From a virus, in IMG/VR virus record IMGVR_UViG_3300037391_000010, positions 1 to 64,000 of that record: 64,000 bases of DNA. The stretch is one strand, 5' to 3'. This document shows, one piece after another, positions 7,871 to 52,646 of this stretch (the first letter of the stretch is position 1; each line of letters opens with the position of its first letter). The notes beneath the pieces are model-generated. The model did no database searches, was not told the DNA's origin, and saw only the letters and a list, made by a program, of their open reading frames with translations. Both the position numbers and the translations under genes were made by a program.

Positions 7871-8105
7871 CCTGCGGAGCCTGTACACCAGTTGGGAAGT
7901 CTCGACCACTGAGGGGAACGATTTTTATCAAGAAGTGTCGAGGCTGCTCGAACCAATTTTCGAACGTGCCGTCGCCAAAAATATTCGCATCCGCGACCTC
8001 GCTCACACCATCAATAGTGTAGTGGGGGAATTAGAAGCGGTCCACAACCTCAAACGAAATTCCGAAGCGTACCATCGGGGGGAGAGACCAAGTGATAAAG
8101 CCTAG
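7863..8105 (+). CDS. Hypothetical protein
   Basis: 80-aa ORF coupled to its neighbours. Confidence 0.6.
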   Translation: MDNLRSLYTSWEVSTTEGNDFYQEVSRLLEPIFERAVAKNIRIRDLAHTINSVVGELEAVHNLKRNSEAYHRGERPSDKA

Positions 8106-26304: not shown

Positions 26305-27969
26305 ATGAAGCCTAGCAACCCACTCCTACAAAAACAAGCTCTCGATGAAACCATGGTCATGTGGAATGACCCTGATTACGCGGAGCACCAACATCATTCC
26401 GATCCCGGTTACACCACTCAAAACGGCAAGGATTACGCGGGTCGCGGCACCACTGAAGTCGAAGAGGGTGCGCTTCAAGACGGCATCCCAGCGAACCTAT
26501 TGTCCGTTGAACTCGGTAAGACAGGCAAGACCGCCGACAACGACGATGACTTCTATCGCGAGTTGGAGCAAGAGGGACAGCAGGATCGGGAACTTCACGA
26601 AGAGGCGCAGCCTGCTGAATATGATGAGGCACTAAACCGTGCTCTGACAGCACTTGATGTGCTCGCGAGGATTCCTTCGAGTCAAGACATCCAAGGCTGT
26701 GCTCAGATGACTGCGGCAGACTTACGCCAGTTCGCTGAGGAATACAAAACTGGCAAGGCGCGTCGATTCTCAAGCGATGATAACCCCCACGTCACCACGA
26801 TGCCCAGTGCCCCAGCCCCAGTCGATCCCAGTGACGCAACGTTCTTCAAGGAGAGTGATCCTATGCCTAATCAATTCTCACCCGCCGAAGAGAAAATCAA
26901 TGCCGCTGCCGCAGGTAGTGGCTTTCACTATGGAGCCCGCGTTACGGACGGAACCACGCTATGGTTCAAGGGGAAAGATGAACGTTTGTCGTATGATCCA
27001 AAGACTGGGAATGTCACACACCTAAAGAACGGGAAAGTTGTATCGGAATGTCCTCTCGATCAACTCTCAAAGATCAAATCCTCCGCTGAAGAGTTTCACA
27101 CAACTTTGAAGAAGCAACTCGGTCAGGACAAAGAGGCCGCTATCCGCCCATCCCCACATGCCGTGTTTGAAAATAAAGTCGATGATGCTACTGGGAAACA
27201 GCCCGTGGCACCCGATGAACCCTCTGATGATGAAGTGATGAAAGCTAAGATGACCCTCGAAAACGCCGGGGTAGGCGATCAGATTGGTGTCAACGCTGCG
27301 GAGGAATCGAGCGAAACTCTTCCCGATGATTGGCCCGAAGGTTGGCACATGTACGACTCGAAGACTGGGGATGAGATCAAAAAGAAATCCGCCCCGAAAG
27401 AAGCGGCTACCACCAAAACTTATGGTACGGGTACTCCTCCGGGCGGCACGCCTAACGACCCAAGTATCGATATTGAAGACGAGGAAGACGACAAAACGGC
27501 GACTACAAAGACTGCTTTGGTCGGCATTCATGAGACGCCGAAATTCCTCCCGCCCCGCGACGATGTGCGTCGGCACCTCGATGAACAAGTGCAGGATGAG
27601 GTGATGGAAGGCGTGATGGATGGTGTTAAGGACGATAAGGTCGCCGCTTCGGACGAGCAGGCAAACGAATTCTACTTGGATAAAGTTCACAGCATGAAGG
27701 CCGAAGCCAAGGAAGCGTTCATGAGTGACGGTGCCATGCAGCAAGAGGCTCAGGATGGGGGCATGAGCATGGAAGACCTGTGGAAAGAGGTCGGTGGGGC
27801 TTTCACCGAAAACTACTACATCTCGGCCTATTCCAAGCAAGGATCGATTGAAGTCTATGAGGGACTCAAGTGCCCTAACTGTAAGAGTACGAAGGGGAAA
27901 CCCGTCGATGACGGTGCGAATGATGGGGTAAGCTTGCAGGAATGCCTTACCTGTGGGAGCTTTTACTAA
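26305..27969 (+). CDS. Acidic modular head-associated protein with K-x-A motifs and a C-terminal Zn ribbon
   Basis: KQAL, KTAD, KEAA x2, KSAP, KTAT, KTAL, KVAA; C-terminal CPNC...CLTC. Confidence 0.6.
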   Translation: MKPSNPLLQKQALDETMVMWNDPDYAEHQHHSDPGYTTQNGKDYAGRGTTEVEEGALQDGIPANLLSVELGKTGKTADNDDDFYRELEQEGQQDRELHEEAQPAEYDEALNRALTALDVLARIPSSQDIQGCAQMTAADLRQFAEEYKTGKARRFSSDDNPHVTTMPSAPAPVDPSDATFFKESDPMPNQFSPAEEKINAAAAGSGFHYGARVTDGTTLWFKGKDERLSYDPKTGNVTHLKNGKVVSECPLDQLSKIKSSAEEFHTTLKKQLGQDKEAAIRPSPHAVFENKVDDATGKQPVAPDEPSDDEVMKAKMTLENAGVGDQIGVNAAEESSETLPDDWPEGWHMYDSKTGDEIKKKSAPKEAATTKTYGTGTPPGGTPNDPSIDIEDEEDDKTATTKTALVGIHETPKFLPPRDDVRRHLDEQVQDEVMEGVMDGVKDDKVAASDEQANEFYLDKVHSMKAEAKEAFMSDGAMQQEAQDGGMSMEDLWKEVGGAFTENYYISAYSKQGSIEVYEGLKCPNCKSTKGKPVDDGANDGVSLQECLTCGSFY

Positions 27970-27995
27970 CTACAGCCCTCTTAAATAGGAACTCT

Positions 27996-28898
27996 ATGCC
28001 TTTTACGAAGATAGCCAACGCGACTTTGCAGGAACCAGTTATCGCCCCTGAGGACTGGATCAAGCTGCACGGAAAGCACGTGTTTGGGCACAAGTCCGCC
28101 TCGGGCACCGCTGCCGCGCAGACCTTCCGCAAGTCGGCTGACACATCCAAATATCTGTTGTCGCACTGCACCATCATGGCGTCCGTCATGGTCGAGGCCG
28201 ACCCATACGATTACCTCATCAAGCCGGAATGTGCACACCTCGTTAACAACAACGATGACGCATGGACGAACGAAGTTCTGAAGCTCAGCCACAGCAGTTT
28301 CGTCGGTGCTTTCAACTTCGTAGAGCACTTCCAGAATTCTAAGTACGCGAAGGGTCATATCCTCGATGCCATTCTCCGCAAGATCAATTTGAGCGGCGAT
28401 GGCGGTGTGTGGGTCTATTTCTGCGATATCCTTGTCGCCACTGATCTCGGACACGAGAAGCTGATTAACGACATCCGCAGCGAGAAGGTGAAGTACCTTT
28501 CGATGGGCTGCGTGACTGACCTCGTAATTTGCAGCTATTGCGGTGCCCGCGTAACCGATCAAAACACGTACTGCAACCACCTGTCGTACCAGAAGGGCAT
28601 GTTCCTTACGGATGACGACGGCATTGCTCGTCGCGTGGCTGAGCTTTGCGGACACAAGACAATGGAAAATGGCGGTGTGAAGTTTGTGGAAGCGAGTTGG
28701 GTTGCTACTCCCGCTTTCCCCGGTGCCGCGAAGCGCAATACCGTGGCCGAAGAGTGGGTCGGGCCTCGCACCAAGTACACCAAGTCATCGGCTGCTGGCA
28801 AGATGGCAAAAATTGCCAGTGGAAATGATGAATTCGAAACCCTTGATTTAGGTGATGCTTTAATGAGCGCGGACCTTCACGGGAGACTAATACGCTAA
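27996..28898 (+). CDS. Prohead (capsid maturation) protease with Zn-finger insertion
   Basis: N.N.D.W...L...F.G..NFVEH, GHILDA, LSMGC (candidate catalytic Ser), C..C...C.H, F.EASWV..PAF..A; upstream of scaffold and capsid; start moved to ATG 27996. Confidence 0.8.
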   Translation: MPFTKIANATLQEPVIAPEDWIKLHGKHVFGHKSASGTAAAQTFRKSADTSKYLLSHCTIMASVMVEADPYDYLIKPECAHLVNNNDDAWTNEVLKLSHSSFVGAFNFVEHFQNSKYAKGHILDAILRKINLSGDGGVWVYFCDILVATDLGHEKLINDIRSEKVKYLSMGCVTDLVICSYCGARVTDQNTYCNHLSYQKGMFLTDDDGIARRVAELCGHKTMENGGVKFVEASWVATPAFPGAAKRNTVAEEWVGPRTKYTKSSAAGKMAKIASGNDEFETLDLGDALMSADLHGRLIR

Positions 28899-31093
28899 TG
28901 GCAAACGCAATGAAATCGAAACTAGCAGTCGCAAAGGCGGCACTTGATCGCAAACAAGCGGATTTAGACGCCGTTGACGATCAGATCATGGGTCTGGACT
29001 CTGGCATTCCATCCGACCTTCCCGCAACCCCCGAATTTGACCTCCTTACCGCGAAGCGCGAAGAGCTTGAAGAAGAGATTCGCACGATGCGCGAAGGCGT
29101 TCAGTTTATCTCCGAGTGGGAGAAGCTGAAGGGCGGACAATGGTCGGAAGGTATTCGTTCCCAGTTGGACGGCCTCGACTCAGAGATCGCCAATATAGCT
29201 GGCGGCGATGCCGCCGAGCCGGGTATGGGCGTAGGCCCTGACATGGGAGCCCCGTTGGGCGATCCCCTCGCTGCACCACCTGCTCCAGACGCTTTAGCAG
29301 CACCAGCGGGCGAAGTGGCTCCTGAAACTGCCCCAGCCCCCGAGATTGCGGCACCCGATGCCGCCGCAGAACCAGCACCAGAAGCACCCGCACCTGCCTT
29401 GGAACCTCCGATGGCGAGCGCAAAATCCGCAGTAAACAAGAAAAATAACTATCAAACCTCTCAAAAGAGGGGCAATTCTGCCTCTCCTGAGATGAAAAAG
29501 GAAGGCTCAACCATGGCAACTCCTACAGCTACCAAGCCCTCGAACTTGAAAGAGAAGCTTGCAGAACTGAAAACGAAGCGCGAGACGATCAAGAGGGAAG
29601 CGCAGGTTCGCACCGCTGCGGCGTATACAATCGCCAATACGATGCTCCCGGGTGCCCCCGTCGAAAAGCGTCAGGCATTCGCCTCTTCGCTACTTCAAGG
29701 TAACGACACCAAAGCTCTCGTTGCTGCCCTCCGTCAAACCGCGATTAACGCCCACAACACCCACATCGCCGAACAATTTAAGGAAGTCCACAAGGTCGAA
29801 CTCAATGATCTCCTCGAAGACCCGTCCGTTCTGAAGTCCGAGCGTTCCGCTGTCGAGAAGGAAATCAAGGGTGACGCGAAGTCGGCTGGCAAGACTGCTG
29901 ACGACCGCAAGGACGCTGGTCCGCAGACTGATACGTACAACGACGGTCGTGGTTGCGGCGGCGGCACTCACTCCGAGCCGAAGGAAATGGAAGCCTCGAA
30001 AGCTGGCGACCGTCCTGATGCTGGCGAGAAACCGGGTCAGACCGTGAATCTGAGCGACGGCAAGTCCGCTGCCTCAAAGAAGGCAAAATGCAAGGACGGC
30101 GAAAAGTGTGCTGGTTGCGATAACTGCAAGTCCACATCTGCCGCCGACAAGAAGGCCGCTGAAAAGTGCGCCGATTGCAAGGGCGATAAGAAATGCGCGA
30201 AGCACGCTTCCGCCAAGGCAAAGAAGGCCGATGAGCCGCCAATGGATGCACCGCTCGACGCACCCGCAGGCGATGCCCCACCGATGGATATGGCCGCTCC
30301 CGCAGGCGATGCAGGGCTGGACGCTCCTCCGATGGATGCAGAACCACCCGCTGACGAAGCAGGCGCAATTCTGACCGACGAGAAGAAGATGGTCGTTCAG
30401 GAAAAGATCGAGGAAGTCAACGAGGCTGTCAAGGCCCTTGAGCAGGAAATCCTTGAAGAGAACGAAGAGGAAGTTCCTCTCGCTCTTGAAGAGGGTGAGC
30501 CGTCCGAGGAAGAGCTTGACCTTTCGTCTGTGTTCGATCAGGACGAGATGGAAGACAAGGCCGCGTCACTTGCCAACGAAGGCGACGAACATCAGGCCGC
30601 CGGCGATGACGACAGCTTCTTCGCCCCAACATCTGCCGCAGGCATGGAATCTGTGCTTGACGACAGCGGTATGCAGGTAGCCAGCATCGAGAGCTATTTC
30701 GATATGCAGGGCTCTGACGCCGACCCACTTTACAGCCTCATTGCTTCCGAAGAGAAGGTTGCAATGAACGTTGAAGGCTTTGACGTTCTGGAATCATTCA
30801 CTGGCGAAGTTGCCAACAAGCTGAAGCAGAACGAGGCTGGCGCAGAAGATCGCGACAACGAGTCGGATCACGATGAAGACCTCTTCGTCGAAGCAATGAA
30901 GGACATCAAGCCTGAAGAGCAGGGCGCAAAGCGCACTCCTCAGGATGCGGTTCCTCAGTTGCAGTCTCCGAAGTCCGCAGCCGCAAAGACCGCAGCCAAG
31001 GCTCCTACGGGCAGCATCAAGCGTGTTCGCCCAGTCGTAGCCTCACCGAAGCCCGTTGACATCGCCACTGCGCTGTTCGGCGACGACGAGTAA
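28898..31093 (+). CDS. Capsid scaffolding-like protein (acidic, coiled-coil, many K-x-A motifs)
   Basis: Directly follows the protease (TAATG); low complexity with coiled coils; possible internal start at 29513. Confidence 0.65.
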   Translation: MANAMKSKLAVAKAALDRKQADLDAVDDQIMGLDSGIPSDLPATPEFDLLTAKREELEEEIRTMREGVQFISEWEKLKGGQWSEGIRSQLDGLDSEIANIAGGDAAEPGMGVGPDMGAPLGDPLAAPPAPDALAAPAGEVAPETAPAPEIAAPDAAAEPAPEAPAPALEPPMASAKSAVNKKNNYQTSQKRGNSASPEMKKEGSTMATPTATKPSNLKEKLAELKTKRETIKREAQVRTAAAYTIANTMLPGAPVEKRQAFASSLLQGNDTKALVAALRQTAINAHNTHIAEQFKEVHKVELNDLLEDPSVLKSERSAVEKEIKGDAKSAGKTADDRKDAGPQTDTYNDGRGCGGGTHSEPKEMEASKAGDRPDAGEKPGQTVNLSDGKSAASKKAKCKDGEKCAGCDNCKSTSAADKKAAEKCADCKGDKKCAKHASAKAKKADEPPMDAPLDAPAGDAPPMDMAAPAGDAGLDAPPMDAEPPADEAGAILTDEKKMVVQEKIEEVNEAVKALEQEILEENEEEVPLALEEGEPSEEELDLSSVFDQDEMEDKAASLANEGDEHQAAGDDDSFFAPTSAAGMESVLDDSGMQVASIESYFDMQGSDADPLYSLIASEEKVAMNVEGFDVLESFTGEVANKLKQNEAGAEDRDNESDHDEDLFVEAMKDIKPEEQGAKRTPQDAVPQLQSPKSAAAKTAAKAPTGSIKRVRPVVASPKPVDIATALFGDDE

Positions 31094-34215: not shown

Positions 34216-35175
34216 ATGGCAAACCTTTCTCGTACACAACAGCAGACGGCTATGCTCGGTCAGTTACTCAAGACCGCTGGTGGTCGTCAGAAACTTGCGG
34301 CTTCGTTGGGACCATCCCTCCGTCGTCGTCGTGACTATATGAGCATTGCTCGCAAGGCTCTTATGGTTGAAACTCTTCCCGATGGCGCTCTGCCCATCTA
34401 CGATAAGGAATTCGATGTAAGCGCGATGACTGTGGGCTCGACCCCCGGCTCGTCCTTCGTTGAAGCCTTTGTGGTAGGTGAAGAAGGCGGCGACATCGTG
34501 CGCGTCACCAAGCCAAAGCGCGTCACGGTTCCGACGTTTGAAATCGTGTGCAACCCGATGATTCCGATCACGCAGATCAAGGAACGTCGTTTCGATCTCG
34601 TCGCTCGTTCACTCAACCTTGCAAAGGCTGAAGTAGGCGCAGCGGAAGATGGTTACGTGTTCAACCTGTTTGACGGCGTTGCGGCAGGCGCAGTCGGCCA
34701 TCCACCCAACGATCCGGTTTACAACCCCGACATCGCCATCAATGCTCCCATCGACATCAACTCGTTGGCAGACGGCTTTGGTCAGGTTGCACGCCACGAT
34801 CTGTCGGTTGCTTTCATCTTCTTCAATCCGCGTGACTACACGGACCTGTTGAAGTGGACGCAGCAAAACATCGACCGTGAAACACAGCGCAAGCTGTTGA
34901 AGACGGGCGTCATGGGCTATCTATGGGGCGCAACGCTCCTCCAGTCTCGTAAGGTCGGCTACGGCTGCATCTACATTCTGGCGGACGCTGAGTTCCTCGG
35001 CGTAATCCCAGAACGTATTCCGTTGACCGTGATGTCTGCCGACCGTCCTGACCTCCGTCAGATCGGTTTCAGCATCTTCGAGAACTTGGGCTTCTTGGTG
35101 TTCAACCCATCAGGTGTCCAGCGTCTCACAGTCAATGGCCGCTTCAACGCGACCGCCAACTACGGCGAGAACTAA
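34216..35175 (+). CDS. Major capsid protein (HK97-fold)
   Basis: R.KLA.S....LR...DY..IARK.L.V..LP.GA.P.YDK, V.VP.FEI..NP.I....IK.R.F, G..G.LWGA....S..V..G; follows protease, scaffold and decoration genes. Confidence 0.85.
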   Translation: MANLSRTQQQTAMLGQLLKTAGGRQKLAASLGPSLRRRRDYMSIARKALMVETLPDGALPIYDKEFDVSAMTVGSTPGSSFVEAFVVGEEGGDIVRVTKPKRVTVPTFEIVCNPMIPITQIKERRFDLVARSLNLAKAEVGAAEDGYVFNLFDGVAAGAVGHPPNDPVYNPDIAINAPIDINSLADGFGQVARHDLSVAFIFFNPRDYTDLLKWTQQNIDRETQRKLLKTGVMGYLWGATLLQSRKVGYGCIYILADAEFLGVIPERIPLTVMSADRPDLRQIGFSIFENLGFLVFNPSGVQRLTVNGRFNATANYGEN

Positions 35176-40434: not shown

Positions 40435-43269
40435 ATGGCTAACGAGAAAATTTCACAATTAAATAGCGGAAATCCCGCTCAAGGTGGAGACCTGCTCCTC
40501 ATTGCCCGCTCAGGGCAAAGCCTTTCCGTGACGGCGAGCAGCGTGGCGGCTCTGGCAGGTGGTGGGTTTAGCGGGTCGTTCGCCGATCTCACGTCAGGCG
40601 TCAATGCTTCGGCTATATTTACGGTGGGTAACGGTGGGTCAATCACATTTTCTGGTGTCGCATCCCCCGTCACCACGCAATTAGCTACAGCAGGAGCTTA
40701 CGCCATCCTCGGTGCATCGGCGGTTACGAACTCCGATGGTGCAAGCACAATCATCAGCAATGGGAACATTGGTTCCTACCCGACCAACACGATCACACCG
40801 GGAAGTCCGCCATGGACTCTTTCGGGTGCATCAGTCGTCACCGCCGTCGCTCAGAACCAGACGGATTTGGCTGCGGCGATTTCCTACTATCAGGGATTGG
40901 GGCCGGGGACTGCTCTGGGTGTAGCTCTCGATGGTCTGACCCTCACCCCCGGCGTTTACAGCGGCGGAACTTTCACCTTGAGTGGTGGAAATCTTACGCT
41001 GAATGGCGCGGGCACCTACGTATTCCTCGCATCAACCACGATTGGCCTGACGGGTGCTTCAACAATCACCCTAACGGGAGGTGCAACAGCCGCGAACGTT
41101 GTCTTTGTCGCGGGTAGTTCATTCACCGCAGCCGCCAACGCTGGCACCGTATTCAATGGCAACATCCTTGCAGCCGTTTCCATTACGGTTGACGGTGGAG
41201 CATATACAGGTCGCCTGCTCGCGAATACTGGGGCGGTCACCATCTCCACCGCTACCACTGTCACCTTGTCATCGGGCGTTCAACTCGGTATAGTCAATGC
41301 AAATCAAATTTACGGTGTGACTGTCAGCGGTACGGCTCCAACCGCAGGACAAGTTCTCACAGCTACGAGCGCGACAACGGCCAATTGGCAGACACCTAGC
41401 GGTGGAGGCGGTGGTGGGGCATTCAGTGCAATCACCGCAGGCACCAACACCGCAGCTTTGGTGGTGGGCACGGGCGGTACGCTCATGGTCAGTGGCACGG
41501 GCGTGATACAAGCAACTCAGATTCGAGCCGTTATTGTCAGCGGCACAGCCCCAACCACAGGTCAGGTACTCACAGCGACAGGTGCAACAACTGCGAATTG
41601 GCAGACGCCTTCGGGCGGCGGTGGGGCTCCGGGTGGTGCTAATGGCGCGGCTCAGTACAATTCCTTCAGCACGTTTGCTGGTTCGCCCGATGTCTTCATC
41701 GACAATCCCAGCGTAATCAATGGATCGTATACCACTCCGCTTCAGATCACAGGCAGCAGTGCTCCGGGTAGCCATTTCGCTTTCAACGGCAACGATATGC
41801 TGGCGGTATTTGTTTACGGCAACAATTCTGCACCGGGATTGCGCCTTACGCCATCGGGCGACACTCAAGAGGTTGACATCAACCTCGCAAACTCTTACGG
41901 CGAGACCGCACAGTTCACGCCCGGATTATTGGCGATCAACGGTCTGTTCGGCGGGTATATTTCGTTGGGTCCGAATTCGCCATTCAGCCCCGGAAATGGT
42001 TTTGGCTTCGCGAGATTTGAAGACGACAGTTCTAACTTCACGGAGATTGGTGGAGGTGTTACGGATTCGTGCGGTAGCATCTACATGTTTAACGAATATC
42101 AGGTTTCCACCAACGGCCATGCCGCTCTCACAGTTTATGGCGGCTATGGAGCCCACGATGACATCATGGCGTTGTTCCTGAATCAAGGCGCAACCACAAT
42201 CACTCCGTCTCTTGCATTCGCAGTTGGTTTTTCGGTCGATACAAACGGACACGTGACAGCAGGTAAGGCAGGTCAGGGAGCTTTCAATACAGATTTTGCG
42301 GGAACCATCGGACTTACATCTACATCGCAAGCAGTGACGTTCGGAGCACCGTTCACAGGGGCTAACCCGCCCATAGTAACCGTGACCGCCCTTTCCGATC
42401 CATCGCCTCTCGGCGGCGTGTGGATTACCAATCAAGGTGCAACGACTGCGTGGACAGGATTCACACTCAACGTCACTATGGCTCCCCCAGACTTCATTAT
42501 AGCCACTAGCGCCGAGGACAATTCCAGTCTTACCGTAACTATGACCCTTGCATCCAAGATAACAGGCTCCGTCGCCAGCGGCACCTTTGTTTCTGGTGAA
42601 GTGGTCACACAAACTTTATCGGGCGCAATGGCGTATCTCGTCAGCACGGCTCCTACGGCATCCGCTCCGATGTATATCTCGAACATTATGTATTTTGCAA
42701 CTGGTTCAGTAACCAGCGGCACGTTTACCCCGGGCGAATTGGTCACGCAGGCCAGCACGCTCGCAACGGCTTACCTGATGGGTGCGGTTCCTACGGGATC
42801 GAGTGACATATATCTCATGCTCGTCTCAGGAACCCCAGACTCATCGGATATTTGGACAGGGCAGCTTAGTGGAGCCACTTACACTCCGACCACCGCACCT
42901 GCTATCACGGGAACACCCGACTCGTCGGATATTTGGACAGGCGACACCAGCGGAGCTATTTACACCCCAACGTCCGCGCCTGTTGCCCCCGGTAGTTTCT
43001 CACCGGGCGGGTATGTCGGCAACTTGGTAGGTCTAACGAATTTGTCGAATCTGAATGGTTACCCGTATTGGGGAATACCCGATGGCATCTACTACGGCTA
43101 CCTCCTACCTGCGGGCACTTTTGCTGGGTTCAAAACCTATGGAACGAGCGGCACCACGTTGGTATTCATCGATCCAACACTTACAGGTCCGGGTCAGACG
43201 CTTGCTGTTGAAACAGGCGATGCTCTTTTCTCAGTGAACTTCAACTATCACGTAATCGGGCAGTCGTAA
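40435..43269 (+). CDS. Fibre-like virion protein with an ice-binding (DUF3494) domain
   Basis: MANEKISQL N-terminus; AG.YAILG.SAVTN, L.G.TLTPGVY, GATAANV.F..GSS, F.GNILA..SIT, GRLLA.TGAVT; GQVLTAT.ATTANWQTPS repeat x2. Confidence 0.8.
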   Translation: MANEKISQLNSGNPAQGGDLLLIARSGQSLSVTASSVAALAGGGFSGSFADLTSGVNASAIFTVGNGGSITFSGVASPVTTQLATAGAYAILGASAVTNSDGASTIISNGNIGSYPTNTITPGSPPWTLSGASVVTAVAQNQTDLAAAISYYQGLGPGTALGVALDGLTLTPGVYSGGTFTLSGGNLTLNGAGTYVFLASTTIGLTGASTITLTGGATAANVVFVAGSSFTAAANAGTVFNGNILAAVSITVDGGAYTGRLLANTGAVTISTATTVTLSSGVQLGIVNANQIYGVTVSGTAPTAGQVLTATSATTANWQTPSGGGGGGAFSAITAGTNTAALVVGTGGTLMVSGTGVIQATQIRAVIVSGTAPTTGQVLTATGATTANWQTPSGGGGAPGGANGAAQYNSFSTFAGSPDVFIDNPSVINGSYTTPLQITGSSAPGSHFAFNGNDMLAVFVYGNNSAPGLRLTPSGDTQEVDINLANSYGETAQFTPGLLAINGLFGGYISLGPNSPFSPGNGFGFARFEDDSSNFTEIGGGVTDSCGSIYMFNEYQVSTNGHAALTVYGGYGAHDDIMALFLNQGATTITPSLAFAVGFSVDTNGHVTAGKAGQGAFNTDFAGTIGLTSTSQAVTFGAPFTGANPPIVTVTALSDPSPLGGVWITNQGATTAWTGFTLNVTMAPPDFIIATSAEDNSSLTVTMTLASKITGSVASGTFVSGEVVTQTLSGAMAYLVSTAPTASAPMYISNIMYFATGSVTSGTFTPGELVTQASTLATAYLMGAVPTGSSDIYLMLVSGTPDSSDIWTGQLSGATYTPTTAPAITGTPDSSDIWTGDTSGAIYTPTSAPVAPGSFSPGGYVGNLVGLTNLSNLNGYPYWGIPDGIYYGYLLPAGTFAGFKTYGTSGTTLVFIDPTLTGPGQTLAVETGDALFSVNFNYHVIGQS

Positions 43270-43276
43270 GGACATC

Positions 43277-44005
43277 ATGAGCATCACATACGGACCTAAG
43301 ATTCCGCAGTTATTCGTCAGCGCAGCCCTCGGTGACCAATACTACACCGCTGGCGAAGCGTTACTGCGTGGGTTGCAGGCACTCGTTGAGCCGAACGTCA
43401 TCAGTGTCGGTGCATTGAGTGCACCGCCTCCGACTCCAAGTGACGGCGACTCTTACATCGTTGGAGCCAGCCCCACTGGTGCATGGGCGGGTCAAGCCAA
43501 CAATTTCGCCTATTGGTCAACCGACAATCCCTCGGCTCCGAACGGAGAATGGGAATTCTACACGCCATTAAACGGCTGGATCGTCGGTAGCGGTGGAGCG
43601 ATTTACACCTTTAACGGAACAGCTTGGAGTGCCCCGATCACGGGGGGACGTGTAGCAGCTATTCCTTATGTGATTGATGGCGGCGGCTCCGTACCGTCCA
43701 CTGGATTGAAGGGACAACTCAGCATCCCAGCGGGCTGCACGATCACGGGCTGGGTTCTCACCTCAGACGTGAGCGGCTCCGCTGTCGTGGACGTTCTCCG
43801 CTCGACCTACGCCGCATTTCCAACCACCGCATCCATCGCTGGCACAGATATGCCCACACTCTCATCCGCACAAAAGAACCAAGATTTGGTATTAACCGGA
43901 TGGGGGTCTACGGCTATCAATGCAGGGGATGAGATTCAGTTCAACCTCGTTTCCGTCACTACGGTCACACGGCTCAACATCACTTTGAATGTGACCATCC
44001 CGTAA
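43277..44005 (+). CDS. DUF2793-containing virion protein
   Basis: PP.TP.DGD.YIV...PTGAWAGQ...A.W......W.F..P..GW pattern. Confidence 0.75.
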   Translation: MSITYGPKIPQLFVSAALGDQYYTAGEALLRGLQALVEPNVISVGALSAPPPTPSDGDSYIVGASPTGAWAGQANNFAYWSTDNPSAPNGEWEFYTPLNGWIVGSGGAIYTFNGTAWSAPITGGRVAAIPYVIDGGGSVPSTGLKGQLSIPAGCTITGWVLTSDVSGSAVVDVLRSTYAAFPTTASIAGTDMPTLSSAQKNQDLVLTGWGSTAINAGDEIQFNLVSVTTVTRLNITLNVTIP

Positions 44006-46394: not shown

Positions 46395-46628
46395 ATGTCC
46401 AAGAAAATCGCAGCAGCAGACGCAACGGCAATGAACTCGCTCTACAAGGGTGAACTCGGTCGCCTCGGCCTCAAGGTCGCACAGAAGGACGCAAAGGACT
46501 CAGCCGCAGGGCAGTCCCACGATCCTCAGGCTTTCGAGGATCACGAAGATTACATGAAGACCCTTGAGTCGGTCCTGAAGGAAGATGAAAAGACCGCAGG
46601 CGATCCCAACGACCCAATCACCGACTAA
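46395..46628 (+). CDS. Small head-associated protein with K-x-A motifs
   Basis: AGGAG RBS; KIAA, KVAQ, KTAG; late motif upstream. Confidence 0.65.
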   Translation: MSKKIAAADATAMNSLYKGELGRLGLKVAQKDAKDSAAGQSHDPQAFEDHEDYMKTLESVLKEDEKTAGDPNDPITD

Positions 46629-46637
46629 GGAGGAAAG

Positions 46638-49600
46638 ATGAAGCTGGACGCCACACAAGCGGCGGCTGCCAAGCTTTCCCACCTAATCGAGCCCGGGCGT
46701 ACCGTCTATTCCACGGATGGTCGCGCCTACAGGGTCTTGTCAAAGATCGCCTCGGGGGGCTCCCTGAGCTTCCGTCTGGCAAATCTTCAGGGACAGCCTG
46801 TTCCAACCCCCGCAAACTTTACCCCGATCAGCGGGGCTTGGATGCGTTTCGCGTCCTTCCTGAAGTACGCCTACAACAAAGACATCACCGCAATCGTCAA
46901 CGAGATGATTACGCAGGCGGGTTTACCTATCGACCCCAAAATGGACTGGGCTGCGTACCTGACGAAGACTTACTCCGCAAATCTCAGTTCTGTAACCACC
47001 GACCCCGACATTCAGGACGAAGTGATCTATCGGACGGTCGTCTATCTTTTGTTTGAACGAAAGAACAAGAACGGCAAAAAGGTTCTGGAGAACTTTGCCG
47101 AGAAGCTGAAGAACTTCGATGTAAAAACCCAGAAGAAGCCGCTCGCAGAACAAGTCAGCGACTACCTGAAGGGCACCTTCCTTTACTACGCCAAGGATCA
47201 TGCCAAGCATGATGCGATTGCCCTGATGCGCCCCGAAGAGATGAGCATGGAGCAGCCCGGCGAAGAAGGTGAGACCTACAACATCCTCGACACCGAAGAG
47301 CACGCTACCGCTCCGGGCGTTGGACAATCCGAATCCGACCGCGACATCGATCAGTTCATCGCTCAGTTCCAAGAGTGGGTGAAAGGCAAGGAAACTCCGA
47401 AGTCCGCCCCTAACTACGCCGCCCTGCTCAAGATTTTCTGGGATCAATCCCAACAGACCGAGAGCGGAGAAGTTAAGATCAGTGATTTGACGCAAGAGTG
47501 GATTCGCCGCACAGGTTTGAGTTTCGACTCTCTGAAGCAGTACCGAGACAAGATCGGCGGCTTGCTTCGTGATTTCGTTTATGAGAACAAGGCTCAACTG
47601 GGCAACTCTTACAAGCTCGCCGACCTGTTGCAGCACATGTTCCCACCGCCTCCGAAGGCGAAGGCACGTCCAGCCAAGGCTTCGTCCTTCAAGGCCGCAG
47701 GGTGTATCGCATCCGAATACTGCCCGCAGTGCGGCAACGATGAGAATGGCTGCCATTGCCCGAACAAAGCGGATTTGCTGGATGGCGAGACACGAGGCGA
47801 TAAGACGGCCTCGGACCATCACCGCAAGCAAGTGTGCAAGTGTGGTAGCGTCCAGACCTGCCGCTGCTCGGCTCCGAAGATCGCTTTCAATGTGAACTCC
47901 TGCTCTAACTGTCGTACCGCTGCTGAGAAGCCGAAGTGTCCGCACTGTGGCTCCGACGATTACGGCCTGATGCCCACGGATTTCGAGACCGCCAAGTGTA
48001 ACGCCTGCGGCAAGAACTGGGAGCACGGCATCGTCAAGGGTATCAATGACCCGAAGGAAGCCGCTTACGGACACGCCGACAGACCGATCAATGAGGAACA
48101 GACGAAACTGGAACAGGACGTAGATCGTTTCAGCAAGGAACTCAAGAAGTTCCCCAAAGGGCCAACGGGCATGACGCCTGACGCTACCAAGGCTACTCCC
48201 GAGTGGCAGGCAGCAAAGCGCAACTACGATCAGGCTTTCCAAGCCCTGCGGAATTACAACTCCAAGCACACGGCGGCTGACCTCGGTCGATGCTCCTGTG
48301 AATGGGAAGAATGTCCGTTGGGTCACAAAGCTGGTGGGTGTCCGAACCCCGCAGCCCACATGCTTGAGATTTATGGGTACAAGACCCGCTACTGCCAGCC
48401 ATGCACCGATGCAACCATCGAGTACATCCGCTTGGAACAGGGTACGGGCGATGCGGACAACACGGTTAAGATTCTATCCTCTGTAGACACGGAGCATGGC
48501 GTTCACCCATCTCAGCCTGAGGATCACAAGGCTGCCGCTCCGTACTGCGACGGCTGCGACCGCCCGAAGGCGAACTGTATCTGTGAGGGCTGTGAGTGCC
48601 CAGAGAACAAGAACGCGAGCAAGTACGGCGACAAGATCAAGAAGATGGAAGCTCGTCGCGGTGAGTCCATCGAGTCAACGCTTAAGAAGGCGGACGGCGA
48701 AATGGGCGAAGCACCAGAGAAGCCCACTCTTCAGAAGCTCCCCAGCGAGGGCGGCTTCCACCCTATCGCGGCAGGCGAGATTCAATACACCGCTCCCGGA
48801 TTACAGGTGGTACTCGCCGAGGACTGGTTTATTTATGTGACGGATGAGACCACAGAGCACATGTGGGTTTACAATACGGAGATGTGGTACGAGTGGGGAG
48901 AGATTCCAAACGCTTTCGGTGAGGACACAACGAAGCCCCAGCCCACGGTCGAAGCGATGATCCCGTATGCCAAGGGGCACACACCCGAGCCTCTCATGGA
49001 TGACAATAAGAAGCAGATGACGCTTCAAGAATTTGAAGCAAGCAACGGCGACAACTGGGCTGATCCCGGTTTTGACAAAGAGGGGATGATCGGTCACGAT
49101 TTCATGAATGCCGATCAAGATGCGATTCGCCCCCGCATTACGCCCGGAGACACTGGACGCCTGCCTCATGCTCGCACGCAGGGGTCGCTTAAAGAATCTG
49201 CGGAAGGCGGGCTACAACACGCAAATTTGCCACGTTTTGTCGTAATGAACGGCGGCTATCCGATGGAAGTGCACAAAGAGAATTGCCGCGACATGAACAT
49301 GCCGAAGTATCGTCATGCGCCCAAGGATTGGGTTCTCACTGGTAACACAGTTGATGAAGCAGTGGAAGTGGCGGCGGGAGAGTTGAACAGCCAGTTCGAT
49401 GAGCCGTATGACACGGAAGACCTCTTCCGTGTGATGCCTTGCTGCCGTAAGAAGACCGCTGCGGAACTCGCTGGTCGTGGCGGCGGGGAAGACGATGTAC
49501 GCGGAGCAGGTGATCTGTGGCGTGAAGAGTTCTATCAAGAGGGCGGTTCAGCGGGGGCTCCTCCAAAGATTGCCACATCGCTGAAAACATTGCCATGCTG

Positions 49601-52600
49601 CGGGTCGGTATCAAGTCATCACAAACCCGGTTGCAAAGTGTACAATGATAATTTCACCAAGACCTTGACCACGTTGTATCCAGAGAAGTTTGGGAGTGGT
49701 GATATGTTTGTAGCCGCAACGAAAATTGCCGCCGATCAGTGGAAGGTCACCATCCGCGATCCTAAAGGAAAGCAACGAGAGGAAAAGGTTAGGGGTCAGG
49801 ATTACAGCGCAGCCGAACGTGCAGTGACAAAGAAGATGAAGGACAAAGAACAACTCGTTAGCATGACGGTTGCCAATAAAACTGCGGCTCCTGCGGCAGC
49901 GGCACCAGCACCAGCCGCCCGACCAGCGCAAGCACCCCAGACAGTGGTAGCTCCACCAGCAGGCACGGCTGTCGCTCTGCCGGGTCAACAACCGACGACA
50001 GAAGACGAGAAACCGATGCGGAAGACAGTTGTACCCGAGCTTCCCGGAAAGAAGTGGCACATGACCAGCAAAACAGCAAGCATTCTCGAAGACGCCTTCC
50101 AGTATTTCATGGAAGGTAAGAAGGAGGGAGGGCTGGCGGATGTGTTCAACGAACATTACACCCGCACTGGCAAGGGCGAAGACAAGTACATCGCCTGCTC
50201 CAAGCTCATGATGGATTTTGAGTACGCTTTCCAGCGTCAAGAGGACGGCTCCCTAAGCGACGAAGACAGTCTCCGTGAGGACGCGGAGAACGCATTGCGT
50301 GAGATCGTTGGCGATGACCCGAACTACAGCGAGAGCGCAGCACCAGCGACAAAAGGGGCACTCAAGTCTGGACAGAACACTCCCGAAGTAGAGGCTGAAG
50401 TTGCTCAGTTGGCGCAAACTCATCCGCTGACTGAGGTTCACGAGAATTGCAACCCAGCCTATGAGCACGGGCAGTGGTGGATCATCTGCGGCCCATGCGG
50501 TGCTTCGTGGGCGGTTGAAGATGCTACGGGCGGACAGAGCTACAACGGTCTCGATCTGGAAGAGGTTGATGCGGGCGATGGTTCCTGCCAAGAGAATCTC
50601 CATGAGTCCTCTACGGTTCAAGTTCCGGGCATGGCTGGACTGCAATCAGAGGCAAAGGAAGTAACGAGTTCGGTGGAGAAGAAAGCATGGATTGAGGATG
50701 AAGGTGAAGTAGAAGAGGAATCGGTTCAGGATCGTTTGGAATACCTCAGGGGCGAACTCCGCGCCGAGCGGATCAGTCAGGGGGAGTTGATGGAATTACA
50801 GGGTCTTGCCGACTACATTGACCCCGGCGATGTGGAATTGTTGGAGGCCGCTGGTGTCGAAGAAGTTATATCTCAGCCCGATGTACCCATTGAGACACCT
50901 GAGTTCGGTGAAGCCGATAAAACCCGTCTGAGGGGTCTTGGTGTAATTGGAAAGAAAAAGAAGGCGTTCGAGCCCGGAGCCAATAGTGGTATCCGTGGTT
51001 CCAACGACGGCACGTACATCTATCAGGCGGACGTATGGTGCGAGAATTGTGCTACGGAGATCGCCGCCACGTTGGATGCGGAAGGCAAGACGCCGCCTAA
51101 CGTGATGGATGAGGCTTCGTATGATTCGGACAACTACCCGAAAGGGCCGTTCTTCGAAGAGGAATCCGATGCACCCGAGCATTGTTCGGGCTGCAAGATT
51201 TTCCTTGAAAACCCACTGACGGCTGATGGCACAGAGTACATGACACAGATGGTTGATAAAGCCGTCGCCGAAGGTCGCGGCGAAGAGCCACACATTAAGG
51301 AATGGATGGACTTTTACGGGTATCGTCCTGAGGAGAAAAACATGATAGAGTCATCCGATGCATCGGACAAAATCAACGCAATGCCGCAGCGTGGCAGGCC
51401 AAAGAGCCCGTCGCAGTTGGGTCTCCAAGAAAAATCAGAACTCGATCTGCGTAATGAGGGAATCCCTTTGAGAAGCAGCGAGGACAAAGTGGCGGCTACT
51501 CCACAGCCCACGTCTGGCGAAGACGAGGGGTTCAACGTCAAGGTCGTCTACAACAAGTACGGCATCACGCTGGAGCCAACCAACAACCTGCTCAGCGATG
51601 TGCAGGGCATCGGCGAATCGATCCCGAAGCCGAGCATCTGGGAACTGATGGAGGACTTCTTCACCAATGGCTGGGAGATGGTCAACCCTGAAGACATCGG
51701 GGCATTGACATCTGGCGAGATCATGAGTGACCAAGACGGCAACGTTTACTGGCACGAGCGTTATCAGATCGAGGACATGGTTGAAGAGTTGATGAACGGC
51801 AACAAGGTCAACTTGCAATACGGCGGCAACCTGTTCGAGATGGATGAGGGCAGCGAGATCGCCCCGCCTGCCGAACCCGATCCGAATCAGATGGAGCTTC
51901 CGCTCCAGTCTTCCAAGAAGGAGGCCACGGGCGAGATGAGTCAGGCTGAGCTTGACGAGAATGGTCGCGAAGAGTGGCCGATGCATTACAACATCGCTGA
52001 CGCTCTTGGGGCTGAAGTAAAGCCGTTCGACCAGTATCAAGGGCCGTATGTTCGCGTGCCTGAAGGTCGTCTGTGGGTCACTACTCCCGAAGGAGCGGGC
52101 GATGGGGCGGAACTCATCGTTTGGAACGAGAGCAACCGTAAGTCGAGCGAGCCGTTTATGTGGGATGACGAGAATGCGGCGGTCGATGCTGCTCTCAGCG
52201 TCATGGATAATCCCCCAGCCAACACTTTGCCTTGGGGTGCGGAGCGTGAGGAGCAGTTGAAGAACGGCCCCGACACGTCTGAGGTCGAAGACACGGTTCC
52301 AGCGGAACATCCCGAAGGCTGGACGCCTGAGTTTAGTAAGGGCGACAAGGAGAGTCTGCACGGACTTGGTGTCAAGGGTTCGAAGAAACAGGCGGCACCC
52401 GGCGACGGTGGGCTCCAACGCGACGTACAAAAAGCACAGGGTCTCAAGCCAGAACAGAAAAATTACGACAAGGCTATCGTGAACGCCTATGAAACCCATC
52501 CGTTGGTGGAATTGCTCTGGAATTCCATGAAGCGTGATCCGCAGCACAAGGATCGCGTCCAGACTGGGTACGGCACCAAGACGAAGCAGGGTTTGGTGCT

Positions 52601-52646
52601 GAGTATCGCCCGAATCATGAAAGAGAACCCTGTGTCTGGAGAATAG
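46638..52646 (+). CDS. 2002-aa multi-module (polyvalent) protein, putative protease-processed capsid-cargo polyprotein with a sigma-factor-like module
   Basis: AAGGAGG RBS; about 20 unrelated modules (Zn ribbons, small phage domains) separated by K-x-A-(A/S)-like motifs. Confidence 0.7.
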   Translation: MKLDATQAAAAKLSHLIEPGRTVYSTDGRAYRVLSKIASGGSLSFRLANLQGQPVPTPANFTPISGAWMRFASFLKYAYNKDITAIVNEMITQAGLPIDPKMDWAAYLTKTYSANLSSVTTDPDIQDEVIYRTVVYLLFERKNKNGKKVLENFAEKLKNFDVKTQKKPLAEQVSDYLKGTFLYYAKDHAKHDAIALMRPEEMSMEQPGEEGETYNILDTEEHATAPGVGQSESDRDIDQFIAQFQEWVKGKETPKSAPNYAALLKIFWDQSQQTESGEVKISDLTQEWIRRTGLSFDSLKQYRDKIGGLLRDFVYENKAQLGNSYKLADLLQHMFPPPPKAKARPAKASSFKAAGCIASEYCPQCGNDENGCHCPNKADLLDGETRGDKTASDHHRKQVCKCGSVQTCRCSAPKIAFNVNSCSNCRTAAEKPKCPHCGSDDYGLMPTDFETAKCNACGKNWEHGIVKGINDPKEAAYGHADRPINEEQTKLEQDVDRFSKELKKFPKGPTGMTPDATKATPEWQAAKRNYDQAFQALRNYNSKHTAADLGRCSCEWEECPLGHKAGGCPNPAAHMLEIYGYKTRYCQPCTDATIEYIRLEQGTGDADNTVKILSSVDTEHGVHPSQPEDHKAAAPYCDGCDRPKANCICEGCECPENKNASKYGDKIKKMEARRGESIESTLKKADGEMGEAPEKPTLQKLPSEGGFHPIAAGEIQYTAPGLQVVLAEDWFIYVTDETTEHMWVYNTEMWYEWGEIPNAFGEDTTKPQPTVEAMIPYAKGHTPEPLMDDNKKQMTLQEFEASNGDNWADPGFDKEGMIGHDFMNADQDAIRPRITPGDTGRLPHARTQGSLKESAEGGLQHANLPRFVVMNGGYPMEVHKENCRDMNMPKYRHAPKDWVLTGNTVDEAVEVAAGELNSQFDEPYDTEDLFRVMPCCRKKTAAELAGRGGGEDDVRGAGDLWREEFYQEGGSAGAPPKIATSLKTLPCCGSVSSHHKPGCKVYNDNFTKTLTTLYPEKFGSGDMFVAATKIAADQWKVTIRDPKGKQREEKVRGQDYSAAERAVTKKMKDKEQLVSMTVANKTAAPAAAAPAPAARPAQAPQTVVAPPAGTAVALPGQQPTTEDEKPMRKTVVPELPGKKWHMTSKTASILEDAFQYFMEGKKEGGLADVFNEHYTRTGKGEDKYIACSKLMMDFEYAFQRQEDGSLSDEDSLREDAENALREIVGDDPNYSESAAPATKGALKSGQNTPEVEAEVAQLAQTHPLTEVHENCNPAYEHGQWWIICGPCGASWAVEDATGGQSYNGLDLEEVDAGDGSCQENLHESSTVQVPGMAGLQSEAKEVTSSVEKKAWIEDEGEVEEESVQDRLEYLRGELRAERISQGELMELQGLADYIDPGDVELLEAAGVEEVISQPDVPIETPEFGEADKTRLRGLGVIGKKKKAFEPGANSGIRGSNDGTYIYQADVWCENCATEIAATLDAEGKTPPNVMDEASYDSDNYPKGPFFEEESDAPEHCSGCKIFLENPLTADGTEYMTQMVDKAVAEGRGEEPHIKEWMDFYGYRPEEKNMIESSDASDKINAMPQRGRPKSPSQLGLQEKSELDLRNEGIPLRSSEDKVAATPQPTSGEDEGFNVKVVYNKYGITLEPTNNLLSDVQGIGESIPKPSIWELMEDFFTNGWEMVNPEDIGALTSGEIMSDQDGNVYWHERYQIEDMVEELMNGNKVNLQYGGNLFEMDEGSEIAPPAEPDPNQMELPLQSSKKEATGEMSQAELDENGREEWPMHYNIADALGAEVKPFDQYQGPYVRVPEGRLWVTTPEGAGDGAELIVWNESNRKSSEPFMWDDENAAVDAALSVMDNPPANTLPWGAEREEQLKNGPDTSEVEDTVPAEHPEGWTPEFSKGDKESLHGLGVKGSKKQAAPGDGGLQRDVQKAQGLKPEQKNYDKAIVNAYETHPLVELLWNSMKRDPQHKDRVQTGYGTKTKQGLVLSIARIMKENPVSGE

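Follow-up and report, generated by a model that had tools for sequence, protein, structure and literature searches.

A cassette protein of a soil jumbo phage shares a K-x-A junction motif with the prohead protease of the same phage

Genomic location and layout of P0001

The window analyzed in this study is a stretch of 64,000 nucleotides from a soil jumbo phage (IMG/VR record IMGVR_UViG_3300037391_000010, positions 1 to 64,000). The phage is a jumbo myophage, kin of Tunturiibacter phage Tunturi_5 and Bacillus phage G. The gene at 46638..52646 (+ strand) encodes P0001, a cassette (polyvalent-type) protein of 2002 aa, and its ORF was confirmed as real. The genes of the sheath, the prohead protease, and the major head protein (MCP) are located upstream, as is a tail-fibre-like gene at 43277-44005. 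The P0001 gene comes after the tail-fibre genes, a position that is syntenic with gp345 of Tunturi_5. These neighbors and the synteny agree with the placement in the late structural block that was given in the preliminary description of this DNA. Directly 5' of the gene, a 77-aa ORF (46395..46628, + strand) has the motif close to its start, with K-I-A-A at residue 4. Its syntenic counterpart in Tunturi_5, gp344, has the same N-terminal motif.

P0001 consists of a conserved N-terminal domain of 349 residues followed by about 20 exchangeable mini-domains. Self-BLAST revealed no internal repeats, which indicates that the modules are mutually unrelated, and separate small folds with linkers between them were seen in the AlphaFold model. 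The earlier reading of the protein as about 20 unrelated mini-domains is supported by both results. The Pfam search of P0001 returned zero matches, the hallmark polyvalent domains were not found in P0001 itself, and no peptidase domain was found in it. A tail tape measure identity was considered and rejected on the basis of the mixed small folds (a tape measure is long and mostly alpha-helical), the Cys knuckles, and the ~50% of low-confidence linker; the gene also comes after the fibre genes, outside the interval from tail chaperone to baseplate genes where a tape measure gene would be placed.

Modular organization of P0001

The junction Lys residues were located at 347, 352, 389, 425 (Arg), 473, 544 (His), 631, 658, 683, 852, 939, 977, 1029, 1081, 1145, 1239, 1348, 1441, 1617, 1761, and 1917. 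The conserved N-terminal domain (residues 1-349, 46638..47684; this and all modules below are on the + strand) contains a small beta domain at residues 9-66, then two helical domains, and closes with a Pro/Lys/Ala linker that includes K-A-S-S. Distant relatives share no other part of P0001, and in them this domain occurs as stand-alone 301-aa genes in L016-L020 and in Tunturi_5 gp345. A fold search with this domain gave no significant match, with weak Tudor/CarD-like and sigma-like hints, and no targeting function was recognized in it.

The N-terminal domain is followed by a pair of short modules with Cys knuckles (residues 350-391 and 392-427, 47685..47918), which the L011 orthologue lacks and which are rearranged in L004 and L012. 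The next module is a Zn ribbon (428-475, 47919..48062) that was found with 70-90% identity in ~45 other multi-module proteins, some with GNAT, ART-PolyVal, or TPR domains. Its right edge is ...NDP-K-x-A-[AS], and the sequences beyond this edge are unrelated. Residues 476-546 (48063..48275, phrog_7560) have a 75-aa stand-alone homologue in Xanthomonas phage Xoo-sp13 (Xoo-sp13_38). Cys-rich and small conserved blocks then follow (547-633, 634-660, 661-685, and 686-854; 48276..49199), whose presence or absence differs among orthologues, with the changes at junctions.

The module at 855-941 (49200..49460), bounded by K852 and K939, has a homologue of 206 aa (P0083). L004 lacks residues 942-979 (49461..49574), an in-register deletion that runs from one K-x-A to the following one. 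The Cys-rich module at 980-1031 (49575..49730) is missing in L012, and the protein P0079 opens with the same module behind a K-R-A-T leader. A beta-beta-alpha-beta module (1032-1083, 49731..49886; pLDDT ~94 in the AlphaFold model) is flanked exactly by the motifs at 1029 and 1081, and is followed by an Ala/Pro-rich linker with a conserved pre-junction segment (1084-1147, 49887..50078). The helical module at 1148-1241 (50079..50360) has a stand-alone homologue of 114 aa (P0077) and is missing in L012 with the motif register kept.

The Cys4 module at 1242-1350 (50361..50687) has a homologue, P0090, that starts with Met and then the same sequence exactly past K-G-A. The module at 1351-1443 (50688..50966) has a 99-aa stand-alone homologue (P0195) and is missing in L011 and L012. 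Hundreds of stand-alone homologues of 100-250 aa, including Erythrobacter phage XM05_117, were found for the Cys4 module at 1444-1619 (50967..51494; core 1459-1562), and they align from about their own residue 3. The module at 1620-1763 (51495..51926) has a stand-alone homologue of 140 aa (P0086), and part of it recurs with 52% identity inside Tunturi_5 gp328, which is annotated as 'DNA ejection protein'. The module at 1764-1919 (51927..52394; pLDDT 76-97 in the AlphaFold model) has a stand-alone homologue of 142 aa (P0088) and lies alongside ART-PolyVal in P0051. The C-terminal module (1920-2002, 52395..52643) is conserved in all orthologues.

The preliminary description had noted that several modules resemble stand-alone small phage genes. 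This is substantiated by the hundreds of matches to residues 1459-1562, by XM05_117, and by Xoo-sp13_38. At the level of sequence, these homologues fit a capture or exchange of small genes.

Enrichment of the K-x-A-[AS] motif

The strict motif K-x-A-[AS] occurs 11 times in P0001, compared with 2.0 expected (z 6.5), and 0 of 2000 shuffles reached this count; the shuffle comparison proposed earlier revealed an enrichment. All K-x-A together numbered 22 against 13.2 expected. The remaining eleven orderings of K, A, and [AS] gave 2-8 matches each, and the highest of them (8 matches) was K-x-[AS]-A, which overlaps K-x-A-A. No enrichment was found in P0001 for E-x-A and other control patterns. Because the other residue orderings give only 2-8 matches, the excess is not mere linker composition. 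The codons at the motif sites vary, with AAG or AAA for Lys and all four GCN for Ala, which indicates selection on the peptide and not on the DNA. Genome-wide, the excess is limited to nine proteins (52 observed, 16.5 expected), while the other 139 ORFs of the same genome have 21 motifs against 21.2 expected. The motif is absent from the tail proteins, where the summed expected count of only ~0.8 makes this a weak control by itself.

It is extremely improbable that the motif arose as an artefact of chance or composition. The motif was defined after the sequence had been seen and loose variants were counted, both of which favor an artefact, but the order-specific excess that no shuffle reached already contradicts it. 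Independent confirmation against it comes from the orthologue indels, the homologue edges, the protease family, the 5484-aa protein, and Tunturi_5, as described below.

Motifs at the module junctions

Whole-module indels that start or end at a motif were found in the L004, L008, L011, and L012 orthologues, and several of them are in register from one K-x-A to the next. The edges of homologous matches were clustered and compared with the motif positions. Of 14 start-edge clusters, 7 were within 5 residues of a motif, as were 5 of the 13 end-edge clusters, with ~10% expected. The stand-alone homologues begin right past the motif or retain the motif as a short leader. In the AlphaFold model of residues 803-2002, 12/12 junctions are in segments with pLDDT <50, compared with 46% of Lys residues overall (P ~1e-4), and wherever a confident module follows, the junction is 3-16 aa ahead of it. 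Half of this model is at pLDDT <50, partly from shallow alignments of some modules, so low pLDDT is not proof of disorder.

These data agree with the original proposal that the motif marks module boundaries, as to the in-register cassette indels, the homologue ends on motifs, and the low-pLDDT linkers. The list of 21 boundaries first given mixed strict sites with looser ones (such as KKAD, KKAW, KKAF, KESA, and HTAA). Most of the looser sites were backed by orthologue indels or homologue edges. Two entries of the list, KIAS at residue 36 and KYAY at residue 76, are not linkers; the former is in a predicted beta-strand and the latter in a helix, both inside the folded N-terminal domain (pLDDT ~75-79). 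The junction reads K-x-A with A, S, or T as the next residue, and it is placed in a flexible linker shortly before each fold.

The motif in the prohead protease and neighboring head proteins

The prohead (head maturation) protease is encoded at 27996..28898 (+ strand; the longest ORF starts at 27942). It carries K-x-A-[AS] ahead of the core, at about residue 51, and at residue 290, ~28 aa from the C-terminus. In 36 non-redundant orthologues (59-97% identical), both sites are conserved amid variable sequence and bracket the catalytic core, and K290, A292, and S293 are unchanged out to phage G gp19 (29% identical). A scaffold-like 731-aa protein encoded directly after the protease (28898..31093, + strand) has 6 motifs against 2.4 expected, and a 554-aa head-module protein (26305..27969, + strand) has 3 against 0.6. 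The MCP (34216..35175, + strand) has one K-L-A-A at residue 26, which is present in 35/35 orthologues and in Tunturi_5 and absent from phage G. Phage G shares the surrounding conserved block but lacks this Lys, so the site may be structural and not a cut site. The family totals of observed and expected motifs are 114 and 13.9 for the protease, 235 and 82.9 for the scaffold-like protein, and 35 and 6.2 for the MCP, counts that come from related orthologue sequences and overstate the independent support.

Short N-terminal leaders that end in K-x-A were found on a 5484-aa protein of the same genome, on the 554-aa head protein (M..NPLL-x-K-x-A), and on several homologues. They resemble the capsid-targeting sequences of T4. 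The NPL-type leader is absent from the N-terminus of P0001, and Tunturi_5 gp345 has K-I-A-S at residue 22.

P0001 could instead stay uncut, as an intact beads-on-a-string protein inside or at the periphery of the virion, with K-x-A as a linker or docking signature that, for example, binds the protease or scaffold for incorporation. The P0001 linkers are rich in Ala, Pro, and Lys, and transfer in the uncut state is described for the N4 virion RNA polymerase and for some plasmid polyvalent proteins (PMC5512222). But a docking peptide need not occupy every domain boundary, and it would not be retained on both sides of the protease core out to phage G, nor would it set the exact N-terminus of stand-alone homologues. 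Transfer of uncut P0001 is thus unlikely.

Other carriers of the motif

The 5484-aa protein contains SprT-like, 2H, PARP, ART-PolyVal, GNAT, and NUDIX domains. None of its 26 broad motifs is inside a Pfam core, and 11 of the 26 are no more than 25 aa away from the edge of a domain (P 0.0016). Its SprT-like metallopeptidase domain at residues 172-283 raises the question of whether another enzyme, either this zincin (MPTase) or a host protease after injection, cuts the junctions. Iyer et al. argue that the MPTase releases the units (PMC5512222). Against this, P0001 is without a peptidase domain of its own, copies of the motif stand on both sides of the prohead protease core, and the adjoining scaffold-like protein is enriched in it. 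Such a placement of the motif is typical of self- and core-processing by the prohead protease in T4, phiKZ, and SPN3US (PMC10052503). Cutting by another enzyme is considered quite unlikely.

In the cultured relative Tunturi_5, the motif was counted 10 times in gp328 (1.8 expected), 6 in gp332 (1.25 expected), 5 in gp345 (0.9 expected), and 8 in gp348 (1.7 expected), and the count was 0 in all tail and fibre proteins. The Zn-ribbon module of P0001 and its module at 1764-1919 occur in other proteins together with ART-PolyVal (P0051) and GNAT (P0012). P0001 could also be foreign to the virion, either a late polyprotein of the cytoplasm or a platform for small regulators, and be encoded in the structural block by chance; its stand-alone homologues in other phages are indeed among small genes of early-gene look. 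This is very unlikely given the syntenic position, the module in common with the 'DNA ejection protein' gene beside the protease, and the sharing of the motif with head-module proteins only.

Proposed processing and delivery

Because unrelated mini-domains are joined by a K-x-A motif that also brackets the head protease, P0001 is probably packaged in the head and cut by the prohead protease. It is somewhat probable, from sequence, that P0001 is a head-packaged polyvalent protein whose junctions are cut by this protease to yield many small injected proteins. P0001 would be made late and taken into the procapsid, where the protease encoded at 27996-28898 would cut the junctions, probably past the Ala. 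The cut rule would be P3-Lys and P1-Ala, the counterpart of [IL]-x-E in T4 and [SAG]-x-E in phiKZ. The resulting small proteins would accompany the DNA and be active during the first minutes of infection, and gain or loss of cassettes at the junctions would let the repertoire turn over quickly.

A wider scheme for the soil jumbo phages of the phage G / Tunturi_5 clade is possible and is offered tentatively. The prohead protease would be K-x-A-specific, and cassette polyproteins (P0001, the ART-rich 5484-aa protein, and several others) would give an injected library of mini-proteins. The sites of cleavage would also be the seams for swapping cassettes between phages and for trading them with early genes that stand alone. 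Each cassette protein would be, in effect, an operon within one polypeptide that is delivered ready-made. The conserved N-terminal domain, given its weak fold hints, might be the RNA-polymerase-binding head of the chain.

Comparison with known systems

The general concept is already known as the polyvalent proteins of phages and conjugative elements (Iyer, Burroughs, Anand, de Souza, and Aravind 2017; PMC5512222), and head-packaged multi-effector members with predicted proteolytic release are described in that survey. Like P0001, they are very large with many unrelated domains per chain, show mosaicism among orthologues, have solo domain versions in phages, and are encoded near virion genes; their packaging, delivery with the DNA, and release by proteolysis are predicted. 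The 5484-aa protein (ART-PolyVal, SprT-like, 2H, GNAT, and NUDIX) is a textbook member in the same genome with the same junction motif. Unlike the catalogued proteins, P0001 has no catalogued effector domains, among them MPTase, ART, methylase-helicase, and LPDs, and is built of mini-domains of 25-175 residues. The part of the survey available to us names an embedded metallopeptidase as the processor and describes no junction motif, whereas the motif here points to the prohead protease (PMC5512222). Two things look new, namely the junction motif that P0001 shares with the prohead protease and a member composed of unknown mini-domains alone. A library search found no paper after the 2017 survey that connects polyvalent proteins to a prohead protease.

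The substrates of the prohead proteases of T4 (gp21, with the internal proteins and Alt) and of phiKZ-like phages (gp175; SPN3US gp245) are also similar to the P0001 system. Shared with them, here at the sequence level, is a three-residue rule in the protease termini, the core or scaffold, and the ejected internal proteins. Short N-terminal leaders ending at the site are known there and occur here on the 5484-aa and 554-aa proteins and several homologues, not on P0001. Multiple cleavage sites in one substrate are known for SPN3US gp53 (PMC10052503), as predicted for P0001. The T4 and phiKZ enzymes cut after Glu, whereas the conserved residues here are Lys and Ala, and their cleavage mostly removes propeptides, whereas ~20 separate products are predicted here from one chain. 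The phage system may, by analogy, be T4/phiKZ-like in its working but of different specificity.

Polyvalent proteins are the predicted first-strike toolkit of the phage. For how they are cut into working units, the shared junction motif offers a concrete hypothesis, cheap to test in Tunturi_5 and phage G, both of which can be cultured. If it is true, the injected proteome of uncultured jumbo phages could be read from sequence by scans for the head-protease motif, and the reshuffling of such repertoires would be explained. The ~20 uncharacterized mini-domain families, one with hundreds of stand-alone homologues, would then be candidate early effectors or anti-defence proteins.

The Dar system of phage P1 (DarB and DdrB) likewise has large anti-restriction proteins, which undergo processing and head packaging. 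To our knowledge, the P1 Dar proteins have no sequence similarity to P0001, and the Dar system has no multi-cassette architecture or junction motif. In Tunturi_5, a DarB-like gene is located a few genes downstream of the P0001 orthologue.

Results

The junction motif of P0001

The product of the ORF at 46638-52646 (+), P0001, is a cassette protein of 2002 residues, and its module boundaries (junctions) carry a conserved, selected peptide, K-x-A-[AS], located in linkers. The same peptide flanks the prohead protease and recurs in proteins of the head interior. The strict motif was found 11 times in P0001, where composition alone predicts 2.0 (z 6.5; 0 of 2000 shuffles), which confirms the recurrent motif of the preliminary description. 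All other orderings of the K, A, and [AS] residues gave 2-8 matches each. Among the over-represented a-x-b-c patterns of the protein, K-x-A-A ranks third, after a Cys knuckle and an Ala/Pro linker. No internal repeats were detected by self-BLAST; therefore, the modules are unrelated to each other, as had been described. Codon choice at the motif sites varies freely, so a recombination signal at the DNA level was ruled out.

Four full-length IMG/VR orthologues (1908-2109 aa, with N-terminal domains 62-91% identical to that of P0001) were compared. They vary by the presence or absence of entire modules, and their indels start or stop at the motif. A 100-residue insert in L011 is placed immediately ahead of K-T-A-S, a 231-residue insert in L012 immediately ahead of K-E-S-S, and the deletions in L004 and L012 run in register from one K-x-A to the next K-x-A.

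At a threshold of E <= 0.001, an exhaustive search with residues 803-2002 returned 3424 homologues. Of the 150 matches listed, the majority are stand-alone proteins, 100-250 aa long, that are aligned to residues 1459-1562, starting from their own residue ~3; other modules have shorter homologues of 94-231 aa. The clusters of homologue edges lie within 5 residues of a motif for 7 of 14 starts and 5 of 13 ends, where chance gives about 10%, in line with the expectation that stand-alone homologues would have their ends at the motifs. Among the homologous proteins, P0090 begins directly after K-G-A, P0088 begins three residues past K-E-A-T, and P0086, P0087, and P0133 retain the motif within a short N-terminal leader. 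About 45 other multi-module proteins contain the Zn-ribbon module (residues 428-475), with 70-90% identity, and the shared stretch always stops at K-x-A-[AS], followed by unrelated sequence. Because of the in-register deletions and the start of P0090, the putative scissile position would most simply be placed after the Ala of the motif. The phage G and Tunturi papers give no cleavage sites. A rival explanation is that P0001 is not cleaved at all.

The AlphaFold model of residues 803-2002 (49044-52643), built from a 50-sequence alignment, has a mean pLDDT of 56.5 and contains five confident modules. All 12 junctions in this region lie in segments with pLDDT < 50, and each of its 11 K-x-A tripeptides is a junction, while only 46% of the Lys residues of the modelled region fall in such segments. 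The proposed location of the motifs in linkers thus holds for this region and fails at residues 36 and 76. The latter are within a strand and a helix, respectively, of the folded N-terminal domain (residues 1-349, 46638-47684; model pLDDT 73.5) and are not linkers.

The motif in the prohead protease and other head proteins

The source record of the window is 155,417 bp and about 48% complete by CheckV; the window is its first 64 kb. PHROGs assign a tail sheath to 19773-23435, a head maturation protease to 27942-28898, a major head protein to 34216-35175, and a tail-fibre-like N-terminus to 43277-44005. Owing to these neighbours, the P0001 gene is placed in the late structural block, in agreement with the preliminary description. 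The major head protein shares 71% identity with that of Tunturi_5, a cultured 309-kb jumbo myophage of Tunturiibacter, 50% with that of an uncultured 485-kb phage, and 35% with that of Bacillus phage G. Ice-binding-like (PF11999) domains were observed in two large proteins, at 40435-43269 (+), within the tail-fibre region, and at 61027-62865 (-).

With the protease as the query, 80 related loci were retrieved (59-97% identity). Two K-x-A-[AS] sites are retained on either side of the conserved protease core, one just before the core and the other about 28 residues from the C-terminus, and the sequence around both sites is variable. When gp331 of Tunturi_5 and gp19 of phage G (29% identity) are included in the alignment, the K, A, and S of the C-terminal site are invariant; gp19 contains three motif sites versus 0.36 expected. 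The ORF could open at 27942, and the N-termini of gp331 and other orthologues align with the Met at 27996; for this reason, the true protease start is probably the latter.

Summed over the families, motif counts relative to expectation were 114/13.9 for the protease, 235/82.9 for the scaffold-like protein 3' of it (28898-31093, 731 aa), and 35/6.2 for the major head protein. Enrichment was absent from the decoration-like protein (2/4.3) and a 221-aa protein (1/2.6). Across the 155-kb record, the excess is confined to nine proteins, with 52 motifs versus 16.5 expected; the remaining 139 ORFs have 21 versus 21.2 expected.

By analogy with T4, phiKZ, and SPN3US (PMC10052503) and with the model proposed for polyvalent proteins (PMC5512222), P0001 would be cut at its junctions by the prohead protease inside the procapsid, and the cleavage products would be packaged and then ejected. 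A non-virion role for P0001 is a rival reading. The motif counts in Tunturi_5 were 10/1.76 in gp328, annotated as a 'DNA ejection protein', 6/1.25 in gp332, 5/0.87 in gp345, the syntenic homologue of the P0001 N-terminal domain, and 8/1.67 in gp348, with enrichment also in gp344; none of the tail and fibre proteins of this phage contains the motif. Part of the P0001 module at residues 1620-1763 is held by gp328 at 52% identity.

The motif in a polyvalent protein and in N-terminal leaders

The second most motif-enriched protein is encoded outside the window by a 5484-aa ORF (genome 112810-129264; L023:811-17265). By the definition of Iyer et al. 2017, it is a polyvalent protein, since it contains SprT-like, 2H phosphoesterase, PARP (PARP/Tpt1-like), two ART-PolyVal, two GNAT, and NUDIX domains. 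Motifs at 410 and 575 flank the 2H domain, 1151 and 1346 the first ART, 3968 and 4115 the second GNAT, and 4672 and 4853 the second ART, and the motif at 1405 precedes a GNAT. All 26 broad motifs of this protein fall outside the Pfam cores, 11 of them no more than 25 residues from a domain edge (P 0.0016). Cutting by the embedded SprT-like peptidase or by a host enzyme is a rival to cutting by the prohead protease. The available text of the 2017 paper (PMC5512222) describes the polyvalent class and predicts processing by a metallopeptidase, and this much was already known. No tie of polyvalent proteins to a prohead-protease motif was found in that text or in the literature searched, and on this basis the tie appears to be new. 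NAD salvage genes at 8092-9033 and 8999-10438 (a cytidylyltransferase-like/NUDIX fusion and a nicotinamide phosphoribosyltransferase) share the genome with a protein bearing many NAD-consuming ADP-ribosyltransferase domains.

The 5484-aa protein begins with a short NPL-type leader, M-NPLL-x-x-K-T-A-A, and similar leaders are found on the 554-aa protein 5' of the protease (26305-27969) and on seven homologues. Short N-terminal leaders ending in K-x-A were observed on the products of 26305-27969, 27996-28898, and 46395-46628 and on the homologous proteins P0015, P0051, P0053, P0059, P0076, P0113, and P0123. Their forms include M-x-NPL[LF]-x-K-x-A, M-P-F-T-K-I-A in the protease, and M-S-K-K-I-A-A in the 77-aa ORF; in phage G, gp38 opens with M-K-R-L-I-K-K-A-S. 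These look like capsid-targeting leaders.

Three proteins with few or no Pfam matches are encoded outside the window (L024, L025), at genome 74174-76105 (643 aa, motif count 5/1.4), 76657-82572 (1971 aa, 5/3.1), and 82547-85717 (1056 aa, 4/1.4). They may be further cassette proteins; a nominal excess was found only in the first.

Searches for module and N-terminal domain identity

Whole P0001 searched against Pfam, PHROGs, and PDB sequences matched only phrog_7560 (residues 489-544) and a sub-threshold TAF1_subA, and nine stand-alone module homologues searched against Pfam and PHROG matched phrog_7560 alone. P0001 as a tape measure protein was ruled out by its architecture. Foldseek found no significant match for the 1200-residue model of residues 803-2002, and an Atlas feature search gave no usable match. 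The Foldseek result for this model included the phage phi29-family uracil-DNA-glycosylase inhibitor p56 (E 0.6, TM by target ~0.55, ~45 residues, matched residues not reported), which serves as no more than a lead to a mini-effector of the DNA-mimic type. A beta-beta-alpha-beta module of 48 residues (49731-49886, pLDDT ~94) is of similar size.

With the N-terminal domain as the query, Foldseek found no match at E <= 0.001 in PDB or BFVD, and a profile search against PDB found nothing. The VIA wide search gave a best Z of 5.6 and also returned sigma-2 and sigma-4 in scattered rows (Z 4.2-4.9), and ESM Atlas gave weak Tudor, CarD-RID, and RapA rows (TM <= 0.28); both sets are leads only. Below significance, residues 9-66 give fold hints to Tudor-like domains that bind RNA polymerase (CarD/TRCF RID, RapA), and residues 81-198 and 229-334 give hints to sigma-2 and sigma-4. 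Neither the N-terminal-domain protein nor the product of a sigma-like gene (genome 91019-92074) has a sigma Pfam match, the Sigma70_r2 and r4_2 models found nothing in the genome, and paralogy of the domain with that gene was not confirmed by sequence (BLASTP E 0.83). One homologue of the N-terminal domain, P0065 (370 aa), comes from a contig of 4.2 Mb and is therefore probably located in a bacterial chromosome, possibly within a prophage.
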